DNA from: Escherichia coli
GTDB lineage: Bacteria; Pseudomonadota; Gammaproteobacteria; Enterobacterales; Enterobacteriaceae
Length of the DNA stretch: 64,000 nt
NCBI RefSeq assembly: GCF_003334785.1
Contig: NZ_QOWV01000001.1
Direction: 5' to 3' (one strand)
Below are positions 1,148 to 33,731 of the stretch, in pieces (the stretch's first letter is position 1; the number at the start of each line of letters is the position of its first letter). The notes under the pieces were generated by a model. It was not told the DNA's origin. It saw only the letters and a list, made by a program, of their open reading frames with translations, and ran no database searches. The position numbers and the translations under genes were made by a program.

Positions 1148-2230
<1,083 letters not shown>

Positions 2231-3286: not shown

Positions 3287-6200
3287 TTGAGCCAGGAATA
3301 CACTGAAGACAAAGAAGTCACATTGACAAAGTTAAGTAGCGGCCGCCGCCTTCTGGAGGCGTTGCTGATCCTTATTGTCCTGTTTGCCGTCTGGTTGATG
3401 GCTGCCTTACTAAGCTTTAACCCTTCGGACCCCAGCTGGTCGCAAACGGCCTGGCATGAACCTATCCATAATTTAGGTGGGATGCCCGGTGCGTGGTTGG
3501 CAGATACGCTGTTCTTTATTTTTGGCGTGATGGCTTACACCATTCCCGTCATTATTGTCGGCGGTTGTTGGTTTGCCTGGCGTCATCAGTCCAGCGACGA
3601 ATACATTGATTATTTTGCCGTTTCGCTACGCATCATTGGCGTTTTGGCGCTCATCCTTACCTCCTGTGGTCTGGCGGCAATCAACGCTGACGATATCTGG
3701 TATTTTGCCTCCGGTGGCGTCATTGGCAGCTTACTAAGCACTACGCTACAACCACTGCTACACAGTAGCGGGGGAACTATTGCGCTGCTCTGCGTTTGGG
3801 CAGCGGGCCTGACGTTGTTCACCGGTTGGTCATGGGTGACCATTGCTGAAAAACTCGGCGGCTGGATTTTAAACATTCTCACCTTCGCCAGTAATCGTAC
3901 CCGTCGCGATGATACCTGGGTCGATGAAGATGAGTATGAAGACGACGAAGAGTATGAAGATGAAAATCACGGCAAACAGCATGAATCACGCCGTGCCCGT
4001 ATTCTTCGCGGCGCGCTAGCGCGTCGTAAACGGTTGGCGGAAAAATTCATTAATCCGATGGGGCGGCAAACAGACGCTGCGTTGTTCTCCGGTAAGCGGA
4101 TGGATGATGACGAAGAGATTACCTACACTGCACGCGGTGTGGCTGCCGACCCGGACGACGTCCTATTTTCGGGCAATCGTGCAACGCAGCCAGAATATGA
4201 CGAATACGATCCATTATTAAACGGTGCGCCAATTACCGAACCTGTCGCTGTAGCAGCTGCTGCTACCACGGCGACACAAAGCTGGGCTGCGCCGGTTGAA
4301 CCTGTGACTCAGACGCCGCCTGTTGCCTCTGTTGATGTTCCACCTGCGCAACCTACAGTAGCCTGGCAGCCTGTACCGGGTCCACAAACGGGAGAGCCGG
4401 TTATTGCTCCTGCACCGGAAGGTTACCCACAGCAGTCACAATATGCGCAGCCTGCAGTGCAATATAATGAGCCGCTGCAACAACCAGTACAGCCGCAGCA
4501 GCCGTATTATGCACCTGCAGCTGAACAACCTGCGCAACAGCCGTATTATGCCCCTGCGCCAGAACAACCGGTGGCAGGTAACGCCTGGCAAGCCGAAGAG
4601 CAGCAATCCACTTTTGCTCCACAGTCTACATACCAGACTGAGCAAACTTATCAGCAGCCAGCCGCTCAGGAGCCGTTGTACCAACAGCCGCAACCCGTTG
4701 AACAGCAGCCTGTTGTGGAGCCTGAACCCGTTGTAGAAGAGACAAAACCCGCGCGTCCGCCGCTTTACTACTTTGAAGAAGTTGAAGAGAAGCGAGCCCG
4801 TGAACGTGAACAACTTGCGGCCTGGTATCAACCGATTCCAGAACCGGTTAAAGAACCAGAACCGATCAAATCTTCGCTGAAAGCACCTTCTGTTGCAGCA
4901 GTACCTCCAGTAGAAGCCGCTGCCGCTGTTTCCCCGCTGGCATCTGGCGTGAAAAAAGCGACACTGGCGACGGGGGCTGCCGCAACCGTTGCCGCGCCAG
5001 TCTTCAGTCTGGCAAATAGCGGTGGACCGCGTCCTCAGGTCAAAGAGGGGATTGGTCCGCAGTTGCCACGACCGAAACGTATCCGCGTGCCAACTCGTCG
5101 TGAACTGGCGTCTTACGGTATTAAGCTGCCCTCACAGCGTGCGGCGGAAGAAAAAGCCCGTGAAGCCCAGCGCAATCAGTACGATTCTGGCGATCAGTAC
5201 AACGATGATGAAATCGATGCGATGCAGCAGGATGAACTGGCACGTCAGTTCGCCCAGACACAGCAGCAACGCTATGGCGAACAGTATCAACATGATGTGC
5301 CCGTAAACGCAGAAGATGCAGATGCTGCGGCAGAGGCTGAACTGGCTCGTCAGTTTGCGCAAACTCAACAACAACGTTATTCCGGCGAACAACCGGCTGG
5401 GGCGAATCCGTTCTCGCTGGATGATTTTGAATTTTCGCCAATGAAAGCGTTGCTGGATGATGGTCCACACGAACCGTTGTTTACGCCAATTGTTGAACCT
5501 GTACAGCAGCCGCAACAACCGGTTGCACCGCAGCAGCAATATCAGCAGCCGCAACAACCAGTTCCGCCGCAGCCGCAGTATCAGCAGCCACAACAGCCGG
5601 TTGCGCCGCAGCCACAATATCAGCAGCCGCAACAACCGGTTGCGCCACAGCAGCAATATCAGCAGCCGCAACAACCGGTTGCGCCGCAGCAGCAGTATCA
5701 GCAGCCACAACAGCCAGTTGCGCCACAACCGCAGGATACCCTGCTTCATCCGCTGTTGATGCGTAATGGCGACAGCCGTCCGTTGCATAAACCGACGACG
5801 CCGCTGCCTTCTCTGGATTTGCTGACACCGCCGCCGAGCGAAGTGGAGCCGGTAGATACCTTTGCGCTTGAACAAATGGCTCGCCTGGTGGAAGCGCGTC
5901 TGGCTGATTTCCGTATTAAAGCCGATGTCGTCAATTACTCTCCGGGGCCGGTTATCACTCGCTTTGAATTGAACCTGGCACCGGGCGTAAAAGCGGCGCG
6001 CATTTCTAACTTGTCACGGGACCTTGCCCGTTCACTTTCGACGGTGGCGGTGCGTGTCGTTGAAGTTATTCCTGGCAAACCCTATGTAGGTCTGGAGTTA
6101 CCGAATAAAAAACGACAAACCGTTTATCTGCGCGAAGTTTTGGATAACGCCAAATTCCGCGATAATCCGTCGCCATTAACCGTGGTGCTGGGTAAAGATA

Positions 6201-7276
6201 TCGCCGGTGAGCCGGTGGTTGCCGATCTGGCGAAAATGCCGCACTTGTTGGTTGCGGGGACTACCGGTTCCGGTAAATCTGTCGGTGTGAACGCGATGAT
6301 CCTGAGCATGCTTTATAAAGCACAGCCAGAAGATGTGCGTTTCATCATGATCGACCCGAAAATGCTGGAGCTTTCGGTTTATGAAGGCATTCCGCATCTG
6401 TTAACGGAAGTCGTTACTGATATGAAAGATGCCGCCAACGCGCTGCGCTGGTGTGTTAACGAGATGGAGCGTCGGTATAAACTGATGTCTGCGCTGGGTG
6501 TGCGTAATCTGGCGGGTTATAACGAAAAAATTGCTGAAGCCGATCGCATGATGCGTCCGATTCCAGACCCGTACTGGAAGCCGGGTGACAGTATGGATGC
6601 CCAGCATCCGGTGCTGAAAAAAGAACCATACATTGTGGTGTTGGTTGACGAATTTGCCGACCTGATGATGACGGTAGGTAAAAAAGTGGAAGAGCTGATA
6701 GCACGTCTGGCGCAAAAAGCCCGTGCCGCGGGTATCCACCTCGTACTGGCAACTCAGCGTCCATCGGTTGATGTTATTACTGGTCTGATTAAAGCGAATA
6801 TTCCGACCCGTATCGCCTTTACCGTATCCAGTAAGATTGACTCACGTACCATTCTTGATCAGGCTGGCGCGGAATCACTGCTGGGTATGGGGGATATGCT
6901 CTACTCTGGGCCGAACTCCACGTTGCCGGTACGTGTCCATGGTGCTTTTGTTCGCGATCAGGAAGTTCATGCCGTGGTGCAGGACTGGAAAGCGCGTGGT
7001 CGCCCACAGTATGTTGATGGCATCACCTCCGACAGCGAAAGCGAAGGTGGTGCGGGTGGTTTCGATGGCGCTGAAGAACTGGATCCGTTGTTCGATCAGG
7101 CGGTGCAGTTTGTCACTGAAAAACGCAAAGCGTCAATTTCTGGCGTACAGCGTCAGTTCCGCATTGGTTATAACCGTGCAGCGCGTATTATCGAACAGAT
7201 GGAAGCGCAGGGGATTGTCAGCGAACAGGGGCACAACGGTAATCGTGAAGTGCTGGCCCCACCGCCGTTTGACTAA
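3287..7276 (+). CDS. ftsK: DNA translocase FtsK
   Basis: 1329-aa ORF with TTG start as in track. N-terminal TM segments, long P/Q-rich linker, C-terminal motor with Walker A GTTGSGKS, then gamma domain. Confidence 0.96.
4496..4573 (+). repeat. Two imperfect 39-bp tandem copies inside ftsK linker (QQPYYAPA-x-EQP)
   Basis: Direct repeat cagccgtattatgc(a/c)cctgc...gaacaacc(t/g) read from sequence, in frame within ftsK. Confidence 0.6.
5234..5380 (+). repeat. Duplicated 42-bp motif ([14 protein letters not shown]) inside ftsK linker, copies at 5234-5275 and 5339-5380
   Basis: Two 14-aa identical peptide motifs encoded with synonymous differences (gaactggcacgtcagttcgcccagacacagcagcaacgctat vs gaactggctcgtcagtttgcgcaaactcaacaacaacgttat). 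Confidence 0.7.
5504..5734 (+). repeat. Six tandem 39-bp coding repeats in ftsK linker ([10 protein letters not shown](Q/P)QY)
   Basis: cagcagccgcaacaaccggttgcgccgcagcagcaatat unit repeated 6 times with minor variation. Explains the low-complexity antisense track ORFs 5132..5875 and 5481..5828. Confidence 0.85.
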
Positions 7277-7290
7277 CTAATGCATCGTAT

Positions 7291-7322
7291 GCCGGATAAG
7301 GCGCGGTAGCGTCGCATCCGGC
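7291..7322. repeat. REP (repetitive extragenic palindromic) element
   Basis: gccggataaggcg-cggtag-cgtcgcatccggc is the reverse-complement form of the E. coli REP consensus, 15 bp after the ftsK stop. Confidence 0.8.
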
Positions 7323-7434
7323 ACTCTATCAACTGAAAATTCAGTATTTTCTTCTTTCCTCAAGCTGATTATTAGCCTGGAATAGAGAGTAGAGGGAACT
7401 CCCGATCGGGAGTGACGTAATTTGAGGAATAATG

Positions 7435-8046
7435 ATGAAAAAAATTGCCATCACCTGTGCATTACTCTCAAGCTTAGTAGCAAGCAGCGTTTGGGCTGAT
7501 GCCGCAAGCGATCTGAAAAGCCGCCTGGATAAAGTCAGCAGCTTCCACGCCAGCTTCACACAAAAAGTGACTGACGGTAGCGGCGCGGCGGTGCAGGAAG
7601 GTCAGGGCGATCTGTGGGTGAAACGTCCAAACTTATTCAACTGGCATATGACACAACCTGATGAAAGCATTCTGGTTTCTGACGGTAAAACACTGTGGTT
7701 CTATAACCCGTTCGTTGAGCAAGCTACGGCAACCTGGCTGAAAGATGCCACCGGTAATACGCCGTTTATGCTGATTGCCCGCAACCAGTCCAGCGACTGG
7801 CAGCAGTACAATATCAAACAGAATGGCGATGACTTTGTCCTGACGCCGAAAGCCAGCAATGGCAATCTGAAGCAGTTCACCATTAACGTGGGACGTGATG
7901 GCACAATCCATCAGTTTAGCGCGGTGGAGCAGGACGATCAGCGCAGCAGTTATCAACTGAAATCCCAGCAAAATGGGGCTGTGGATGCAGCGAAATTTAC
8001 CTTCACCCCGCCGCAAGGCGTCACGGTAGATGATCAACGTAAGTAG
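7435..8046 (+). CDS. lolA: Periplasmic lipoprotein chaperone LolA
   Basis: 203 aa from second ATG ([21 protein letters not shown] signal peptide). Track ORF begins one codon earlier at 7432 (MMKK); either start is possible. Confidence 0.93.
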
Positions 8047-9469: not shown

Positions 9470-10783
<1,314 letters not shown>

Positions 10784-32057: not shown

Positions 32058-33731
32058 ATGACTGAATCTTTTGCTCAACTCTTTGAAGAGTCCTTAAAAG
32101 AAATCGAAACCCGCCCGGGTTCTATCGTTCGTGGCGTTGTTGTTGCTATCGACAAAGACGTAGTACTGGTTGACGCTGGTCTGAAATCTGAGTCCGCCAT
32201 CCCGGCTGAGCAGTTCAAAAACGCCCAGGGCGAGCTGGAAATCCAGGTAGGTGACGAAGTTGACGTTGCTCTGGACGCAGTAGAAGACGGCTTCGGTGAA
32301 ACTCTGCTGTCCCGTGAGAAAGCTAAACGTCACGAAGCCTGGATCACGCTGGAAAAAGCTTACGAAGATGCTGAAACTGTTACCGGTGTTATCAACGGCA
32401 AAGTTAAGGGCGGCTTCACTGTTGAGCTGAACGGTATTCGTGCGTTCCTGCCAGGTTCTCTGGTAGACGTTCGTCCGGTGCGTGACACTCTGCACCTGGA
32501 AGGCAAAGAGCTTGAATTTAAAGTAATCAAGCTGGATCAGAAGCGCAACAACGTTGTTGTTTCTCGTCGTGCCGTTATCGAATCCGAAAACAGCGCAGAG
32601 CGCGATCAGCTGCTGGAAAACCTGCAGGAAGGCATGGAAGTTAAAGGTATCGTTAAGAACCTCACTGACTACGGTGCATTCGTTGATCTGGGCGGCGTTG
32701 ACGGCCTGCTGCACATCACTGACATGGCCTGGAAACGCGTTAAGCATCCGAGCGAAATCGTCAACGTGGGCGACGAAATCACTGTTAAAGTGCTGAAGTT
32801 CGACCGCGAACGTACCCGTGTATCCCTGGGCCTGAAACAGCTGGGCGAAGATCCGTGGGTAGCTATCGCTAAACGTTATCCGGAAGGTACCAAACTGACT
32901 GGTCGCGTGACCAACCTGACCGACTACGGCTGCTTCGTTGAAATCGAAGAAGGCGTTGAAGGCCTGGTACACGTTTCCGAAATGGATTGGACCAACAAAA
33001 ACATCCACCCGTCCAAAGTTGTTAACGTTGGCGATGTAGTGGAAGTTATGGTTCTGGATATCGACGAAGAACGTCGTCGTATCTCCCTGGGTCTGAAACA
33101 GTGCAAAGCTAACCCGTGGCAGCAGTTCGCGGAAACCCACAACAAGGGCGACCGTGTTGAAGGTAAAATCAAGTCTATCACTGACTTCGGTATCTTCATC
33201 GGCCTGGACGGCGGCATCGACGGCCTGGTTCACCTGTCTGACATCTCCTGGAACGTTGCAGGCGAAGAAGCAGTTCGTGAATACAAAAAAGGCGACGAAA
33301 TCGCTGCAGTTGTTCTGCAGGTTGACGCAGAACGTGAACGTATCTCCCTGGGCGTTAAACAGCTCGCAGAAGATCCGTTCAACAACTGGGTTGCTCTGAA
33401 CAAGAAAGGCGCTATCGTAACCGGTAAAGTAACTGCAGTTGACGCTAAAGGCGCAACCGTAGAACTGGCTGACGGCGTTGAAGGTTACCTGCGTGCTTCT
33501 GAAGCATCCCGTGACCGCGTTGAAGACGCTACCCTGGTTCTGAGCGTTGGCGACGAAGTTGAAGCTAAATTCACCGGCGTTGATCGTAAAAACCGCGCAA
33601 TCAGCCTGTCTGTTCGTGCGAAAGACGAAGCTGACGAGAAAGATGCAATCGCAACTGTTAACAAACAGGAAGATGCAAACTTCTCCAACAACGCAATGGC
33701 TGAAGCTTTCAAAGCAGCTAAAGGCGAGTAA
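32058..33731 (+). CDS. rpsA: 30S ribosomal protein S1
   Basis: 557 aa; six tandem S1 RNA-binding repeats; strongly biased codon usage. Confidence 0.97.

Follow-up and report, generated by a model that had tools for sequence, protein, structure and literature searches.

The stretch of DNA analysed here (the window) comprises 64,000 nucleotides of E. coli K-12-like DNA, in which the RefSeq gene order around the element of interest is ftsK (ending at 7276), lolA (7435-8046), rarA and serS. The spacer between ftsK and lolA is 158 nt long; it is 100% identical to that of E. coli strain MC1061, and every one of the 5,426 complete E. coli genomes has it. lolA has two neighbouring in-frame ATG codons, at 7432 and 7435; the current RefSeq annotation uses the one at 7435 (612 nt) and NC_000913.2 the one at 7432 (615 nt). 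Other genera mostly have a single lolA ATG, at the position of 7435. The features on which the following description is based are:

7378-7383, + strand: putative -10 hexamer TGGAAT, placed from the position of the transcription start site (TSS) and ending 8 nt before it

7391, + strand: proximal lolA TSS (U00096.2 936551), the A of GT[A]GAGGG, with a pyrimidine at -1 and a purine at +1

7398-7413, + strand: predicted stem-loop, with 5' arm ACUCCC (7398-7403), loop GAUC (7404-7407) and 3' arm GGGAGU (7408-7413)

7414-7417 (+24 to +27), + strand: GACG motif directly 3' of the stem, with 91-97% identity among 58 distinct Enterobacteriaceae leaders

7424-7429, + strand: Shine-Dalgarno (SD) sequence GAGGAA, read from the sequence, of which AGGAA (positions 2-6) is 97-100% conserved

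7435-8046, + strand: lolA coding sequence of 203 aa, from the RefSeq annotation of identical DNA and the list of open reading frames

The first position of the SD is G or A (57% G in the model-fitted leader alignment described below). Between the ftsK stop codon and the lolA promoter lies a REP-type imperfect inverted repeat (7290-7323, TGCCGGATAAGGCGC / GCGTCGCATCCGGCA), and it is here that the spacer differs most between E. coli strains. When Rfam was searched, sub-threshold matches to the REP-derived naRNA4 were obtained only at 7290-7352. No credible Rfam family was found over the palindrome described below, where three sub-threshold matches to eukaryotic snoRNA/lncRNA families (E 0.21-0.67) are attributed to chance.

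The sequence ACTCCCGATCGGGAGT at 7398-7413 is its own reverse complement and contains a GATC at 7404-7407. The symmetry stops at 16 bp, as the flanking A at 7397 and G at 7414 are unpaired. From the end of the palindrome it is 10 nt to GAGGAA and 22 nt to the RefSeq lolA ATG (7435). An earlier reading of this DNA, made from the sequence only (the sequence-only reading), had described a perfect 16-bp palindrome with a central GATC, located 22 bp before the lolA ATG and about 10 bp before GAGGAA; the sequence and coordinates that it gave are exact, and its distances hold when the RefSeq ATG at 7435 is used. The palindrome as such is within chance expectation. One perfect palindrome of at least 16 bp was seen in the 64-kb window versus 1.16 +/- 1.09 expected from first-order Markov shuffles, and 70% of these shuffles hold at least one. 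What places the element above chance is its location in a short conserved leader and the retention of its stem across genera. The 16-mer is single-copy in the window, even with three mismatches allowed. Six more perfect palindromes, each of 14 bp, are present in the window (1561-1574, 5352-5365, 6309-6322, 10081-10094, 32546-32559 and 47603-47616), and the number of palindromes of at least 14 bp, seven versus 4.7 +/- 2.3 expected, is not significant.

The position of the element relative to the start of transcription was taken from published Cappable-seq data (Ettwiller et al. 2016, PMC4782308), which contain a + strand TSS at U00096.2 936551 with a relative read score (RRS) of 4.165 and a log2 enrichment score of 3.72 for 5'-triphosphate ends. 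The RRS threshold in these data is 1.5 (~20 reads), and TSSs were clustered within 5 nt (+/-5 nt). Coordinates were mapped through lolA in NC_000913.2 (936592..937206) and NC_000913.3 (937372); the NC_000913.2 coordinates are those given in the supplement of Kim et al. 2012, which places ftsK at 932447..936436. The TSS corresponds to position 7391 and sits 7 nt upstream of the palindrome. The 5' UTR is therefore 44 nt long, and the palindrome occupies +8 to +23. TSS mapping had been proposed in the sequence-only reading as a way to see whether the element lies in the 5' UTR, and the published TSS places it there.

Orthologous loci carry TAnnnT-type hexamers, namely TAGAGT, TACATT, TACAGT and CAGAAT, at the same place as TGGAAT, 11-16 nt before the stem, and the promoter-hairpin-SD layout is conserved by eye as a module in the orthologues that have the hairpin. 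A simple sigma-70 scan of 7000-7600 gave no full -35/-10 consensus match, which is compatible with an activator-dependent promoter. The segment at 7340-7354 (TTCAGTATTTTCTTC, reverse complement AAGAAAATACTGA) bears a loose likeness to the RcsB-box consensus, and judged by its sequence it could be an Rcs-responsive element of lolA. This segment, which is conserved in Salmonella, has its centre ~44 nt before the TSS (7391). In papers that cite Tao et al. 2012, lolA is reported to be induced through Rcs.

Other + strand TSSs are located within the 3' end of ftsK, at 7022 (the strongest, RRS 8.66) and at 7198, and some lolA transcripts therefore carry the hairpin internally. Another + strand TSS, at 7482 inside lolA, is assigned to rarA in published Cappable-seq and TSS-seq data. 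Taken together, lolA and rarA appear to be served by several nested promoters. The SMRT-Cappable-seq and Salmonella Cappable-seq supplements searched contain no lolA entry. Two other candidate features of this region were considered and rejected: a SigmaE promoter with GGAACT at 7395-7400, which has no TCAAA-type -10 at the right distance and is not conserved by eye, and a micro-ORF GUG-ACG-UAA at 7412-7420, whose SD would overlap its start codon and which is not conserved.

The 44-nt leader is predicted to fold at -12.1 kcal/mol (z = -2.06), with the ACUCCC/GGGAGU stem included. The hairpin alone, a 6-bp stem with a 4-nt loop that forms part of the minimum free energy fold, contributes -9.8 kcal/mol and beats 99% of the shuffled versions of its 38-nt segment. 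Partition-function calculations give at least 98% pairing of the arms in the ensembles of transcripts starting at 7391, 7198 and 7022 (110-nt, 303-nt and 479-nt contexts, respectively). When either arm was scrambled in silico, the cost of opening the ribosome-binding site (RBS; 7422-7440) was usually raised by ~1-2.5 kcal/mol, although one arm mutant lowered it, and a compensatory arm swap returned it to the wild-type value in all three transcript contexts. The in-silico mutants weakly support an insulating role for the hairpin, by which the SD would be kept clear.

Variation within E. coli was counted using 40-nt megablast queries, in which a single mismatch within the palindrome is enough to leave no intact 28-nt seed. 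Of the 5,426 complete E. coli genomes, 3,900 (71.9%) have the K-12 form, and ~28% are without it. In 791 genomes the form is GCTCCCGGTCGGGAGT (A to G), which reads GCUCCC-GGUC-GGGAGU in the transcript, with a G.U closing pair, a GGUC loop and loss of the GATC. Another 469 genomes, Nissle 1917 and the type strain ATCC 11775 among them, have ACTCCCGATTGGGAGT, in which the loop is GAUU and the GATC is again lost. Other forms occur in ~266 complete genomes; example sequences were inspected. All the changes seen in E. coli fall in the loop or leave a wobble pair on the + strand. As far as these genome sequences can tell, E. coli can do without the Dam site and without the DNA symmetry, and the stem is kept. 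One GTDB E. coli representative (L005) has a GTTC loop, a variant that does not occur in the complete RefSeq genomes. In the soil isolate E. coli SC434 (NZ_LR778142.1, L093), 11 bp between the -10 hexamer and the hairpin (~95-115) are duplicated in tandem, ATAGAGAGTAG, a change that from its placement would shift or duplicate the TSS region.

The comparison across genera used 80 lolA loci from GTDB species representatives and nine more (ten in all were obtained via protein look-ups); Yersinia, Serratia, Pectobacterium and Proteus are outside the genera sampled. The CUCC(C)...(G)GGAG stem is kept by most of the Enterobacteriaceae sampled, and by Erwinia, Pantoea and Izhakiella. It was found in Escherichia, Citrobacter, Salmonella, Klebsiella, Raoultella and Kosakonia, and further in Phytobacter, Kluyvera, Pluralibacter, Pseudocitrobacter and Franconibacter. 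The predicted stability of the orthologous hairpins ranges from -6.4 to -13.1 kcal/mol. The stem ends 21-24 nt before the ATG in most genera and 28-32 nt before it in Erwinia, Pantoea, Pluralibacter gergoviae, Raoultella terrigena and Enterobacter sp. 10-1. The loops are 3, 4, 5 or 7 nt long and their sequences are unrelated across genera. Among the genera sampled the GAUC loop occurs in Escherichia only, and no GATC was found at this position in any of the others (e.g. Citrobacter, Salmonella, Klebsiella, Kosakonia, Kluyvera and Erwinia).

The stem itself varies in several ways. The outermost pair is A-U, G.U or G-C across genera and is often unpaired. The Salmonella stem, GCUCCU/GGGAGU, has one U.G pair, and in that of Franconibacter pulveris, UUCCCG/CGGGAA, a C-G pair is replaced by U-A. 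The arrangement is UCCCUG-N4-CAGGGA in Erwinia amylovora and Pantoea, CCCG-CUUAU-CGGG in Erwinia billingiae, and CUCC-C-GCGCC-AUGAC-GGCGC-A-GGAG in Izhakiella. The Klebsiella/Kosakonia-type forms, CTCCCG-N3-CGGGAG, are exact inverted repeats. Overall, the spacing between the CUCC and GGAG blocks of the orthologues is 5, 6, 7, 8 or 17 nt, and the bases between the blocks stay self-complementary. It is chiefly this combination of variable spacing and self-complementary intervening bases that speaks for a hairpin and against an operator with two half-sites.

The hairpin is not present in all the genera sampled. In Enterobacter and Leclercia the stem is reduced to CCC/GGG, and in the sampled loci of Trabulsiella, Buttiauxella agrestis, Cedecea, Mangrovibacter and Mixta no hairpin was found. 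In Buttiauxella izardii (L062, 1449-1503) and Enterobacteriaceae ESL0689 (L097, 270-300), ftsK ends ~13-30 nt before lolA. This gap leaves no room for a promoter or a hairpin, and lolA in these two must consequently be co-transcribed with ftsK or transcribed from promoters internal to ftsK. Several Enterobacter loci (L042, L048, L054, L056 and others; ~1431-1450) have a strong GC hairpin, GCCTGCCTTCGGGCAGG, directly upstream of the lolA -10-like hexamer, possibly the terminator of ftsK or a structural element that has moved. The sequence-only reading had proposed conservation of the palindrome in other enterics as a check, and its loss as part of what would count against it. The outcome is divided: the perfect palindrome and its GATC are not conserved (~28% of the complete E. 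coli genomes lack the K-12 form and no other genus sampled has the GATC), whereas the underlying stem is. The RNA hairpin in the 5' UTR, which it had offered as one of two possibilities, gains from these results, with a TSS at 7391 upstream of it and a stem that is kept across genera as the loop changes.

To what extent the stem is conserved as a structure was evaluated by covariation. A plain MAFFT alignment misaligns the 5' arm, as the loop length varies, and pair counts were taken instead from an alignment fitted to a covariance model; 20 ungapped leaders of Escherichia, Citrobacter and Salmonella served to build the model, and 67 leaders were aligned at E <=0.5. Since this alignment is fitted to the structure of the model, its pair counts are biased. 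Standard pairs make up 86.1% of the cells in the model-fitted alignment versus 84.6% in shuffles, 22 of 500 of which reach the observed value, and the covariation score in the same alignment is 0.089 versus 0.075, with 41 of 500 reaching it. With arms that hardly vary, formal covariation in the model-fitted alignment of lolA leaders does not reach significance. Two stem pairs never vary, and the outermost pair is unpaired in 30 of the 54 distinct sequences. Conservation is 98% at CC (+11, +12) and GG (+19, +20), and 55% and 29% at loop positions +14 and +15. In the alignment of Escherichia, Citrobacter and Salmonella, variation is concentrated at the outermost pair (column 8), at three of the loop's four positions and at position 13 of the 5' arm (C/U, the U.G change). 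On the model-fitted alignment the stem appears to be conserved mainly as sequence, and its pairing is not demonstrated separately from the conservation of its sequence. The GACG motif matches the SD in conservation and exceeds the outer stem pairs. By pairing with the loop, it can form an alternative hairpin in Klebsiella-type leaders, GCGUC/GACGC, that exposes GGGAGU; in E. coli K-12 this alternative is limited to 2-3 bp, and Salmonella lacks it.

Nearly invariant arms would also be seen if they were conserved for their sequence. GGGAG(U)GACG and CUCC would then be recognised in trans, for instance by an sRNA, an RNA-binding protein or the ribosome, or would simply belong to a stretch of promoter and leader that evolves slowly, and their complementarity would be secondary or accidental. 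The non-significant covariation suits this explanation, as do the 91-98% conservation of GG (+19, +20) and GACG (+24 to +27), level with the SD, the SD-like character of GGGAG, and the display of GGGAGU in a loop that the Klebsiella-type alternative hairpin would provide; one 16-bp palindrome per window is, moreover, the chance level. We consider it possible but doubtful. The bases between the blocks vary in number (5-17 nt) and identity and yet are self-complementary, as in the 5-bp GCGCC/GGCGC inner helix of Izhakiella, which lies within an intervening segment of 17 nt, and the UG/CA inner bases of Erwinia and Pantoea, and the polymorphisms of E. coli are outside the stem or G.U-compatible. 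The CsrA CLIP-seq supplements searched are without lolA, and the 2-3 bp of the alternative hairpin in K-12 also count against it. A CsrA binding site was rejected as a candidate in its own right, as the GGA is in the stem of the dominant hairpin and not in its loop and lolA is missing from those supplements; a model that couples CsrA with the alternative hairpin is feasible only in Klebsiella-type leaders, the alternative having 2-3 bp in E. coli and not being conserved in Salmonella, and it was dropped as the main model.

Other alternatives place the function in the double helix or in the end of a transcript. According to one, a dimeric transcription factor would bind the inverted repeat at +8 to +23 and block or modulate the proximal lolA promoter. 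The perfect inverted repeat of K-12 lies just downstream of the TSS, which is the classical roadblock position and makes the element similar to lacO1-like operators; the half-sites CTCCC and GGGAG are conserved, and the Rcs response of lolA transcription, as given in a citing paper, would be in keeping with transcriptional control. However, the half-site spacing that is fixed in operators of dimeric repressors is not fixed among the orthologues: the blocks are 5, 6, 7, 8 or 17 nt apart, and dimeric operators rarely tolerate such change. The symmetry is broken by RNA-compatible changes of the G.U type in 791 E. coli genomes, in Klebsiella and in Salmonella, and RcsB boxes are normally found upstream of the -35. 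The consensus CTCCC-N4-GGGAG is not known to belong to any E. coli regulator. The element is therefore probably not an operator, and the operator proposed in the sequence-only reading, with its spacing of 5 to 17 nt and its symmetry lost in many lineages, is disfavoured as unlikely. Even less can be said for a Dam-sensitive site at which the methylation state of the GATC would modulate lolA expression or protein binding, as it does at pap and agn43/flu. The GATC is in a regulatory region, as in those systems, and is exactly central in the K-12 palindrome, but it is a single site with no known competing protein, the K-12 form is missing from ~28% of E. coli genomes (the GATT and GGTC variants, in 469 and 791 genomes, have no GATC), and it is absent from every other genus sampled. 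Searches of the accessible literature gave nothing that links lolA with GATC or Dam in bacteria. A regulatory role for the Dam site that the sequence-only reading had pointed out is effectively refuted by the lack of conservation of the GATC both within E. coli and in other genera. It is similarly very improbable that the stem ends the ftsK transcript or terminates transcription prematurely in the lolA leader. A GC-rich 6-bp stem in an intergenic position downstream of ftsK would fit a terminator or attenuator, but the sequence that follows it (GACGUAAUUUG) has no U-tract, a scan of 7000-7600 gave 0 terminator-like sites, and the stem is downstream of the lolA -10 and TSS; lolA is also not among the entries listed in the 3'-end-mapping supplements of Adams 2021, which is weak evidence, since those listings may be incomplete. 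Finally, the element resembles REP elements in being an intergenic E. coli palindrome, and a genuine REP-type repeat lies 75 nt upstream, but the lolA 16-mer is single-copy, has no Rfam or REP match and is tied to lolA in other genera.

The preferred explanation is that 7398-7413 is the DNA image of a cis-acting hairpin in the lolA mRNA that would affect the accessibility of the RBS, the stability of the mRNA, or both. From the predicted folds and the comparison of orthologues, we give this explanation a probability of roughly 0.55. Selection would have acted on the CUCC(C)/(G)GGAG stem rather than on the 16-bp symmetry, and the K-12-type loop would happen to be the self-complementary GAUC, with the perfect symmetry and the GATC arising as by-products. 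By locking the C-rich and G-rich segments of the leader together, the hairpin would spare the nearby SD from other pairings. It would perhaps also be an obstacle to 5'-end-dependent attack by RNase E, and LolA output would then be set after transcription, by the SD-shielding or the RNase E route. Leader hairpins reportedly block RNase E scanning (Richards and Belasco 2019), and such an obstacle role is plausible here. Several observations speak against the hairpin explanation: the covariation is not significant and the outermost pair is often unpaired, Enterobacter and Leclercia have kept no more than CCC/GGG, several genera lose the hairpin although lolA is essential there too, one arm mutant lowered the cost of opening the RBS, the 5' end has seven unpaired nt, and the GACG motif, which is as conserved as the stem, is left unexplained.

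Among known systems, the hairpin of the lolA leader is most readily compared to the ompA 5' hairpin and similar leaders that impede RNase E. They share a short GC-rich hairpin near the 5' end, an unstructured SD downstream of it, conservation in enterics and, presumably, an action in cis. They differ in that the lolA hairpin starts at +8, after 7 unpaired nt, and that of the ompA type starts within ~2-4 nt of the 5' end; the lolA hairpin therefore does not lie at the 5' terminus in the ompA manner, with its TSS at 7391 clustered to +/-5 nt. The classical ompA-type 5' stabiliser tolerates fewer than seven unpaired 5' nt. The lolA hairpin is, in addition, lost in several genera and is known from its sequence and predicted fold. 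Searches of the accessible literature returned no description of a lolA leader hairpin, and searches for the lolA promoter and mRNA returned nothing relevant to bacteria. In summary, the element is an ordinary small leader hairpin, like many conserved ones in enterobacterial mRNAs, and is neither a methylation switch nor a terminator.

A more elaborate version of the hairpin explanation, to which we assign little probability, is that the stem-loop and the invariant GACG together would be a recognition module for an RNA-binding protein or an sRNA that couples LolA synthesis to the status of the envelope. No trans-acting partner was found, the CsrA CLIP-seq supplements containing no entry for lolA. 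If such a module were real, a post-transcriptional layer would be added to the transcriptional induction by Rcs.

LolA is an essential lipoprotein chaperone and a component of a drug-target pathway. In the literature that we reached, induction of transcription by way of Rcs is the only control of lolA to be described. Both the perfect symmetry and the Dam site of the K-12 element are lineage-specific accidents, and in this respect the practical value of the present check is mostly negative. With a conserved leader hairpin, basal LolA output would have a simple determinant in cis, and if the hairpin were the docking site of a regulator, it would be of moderate interest for the field of envelope biogenesis.
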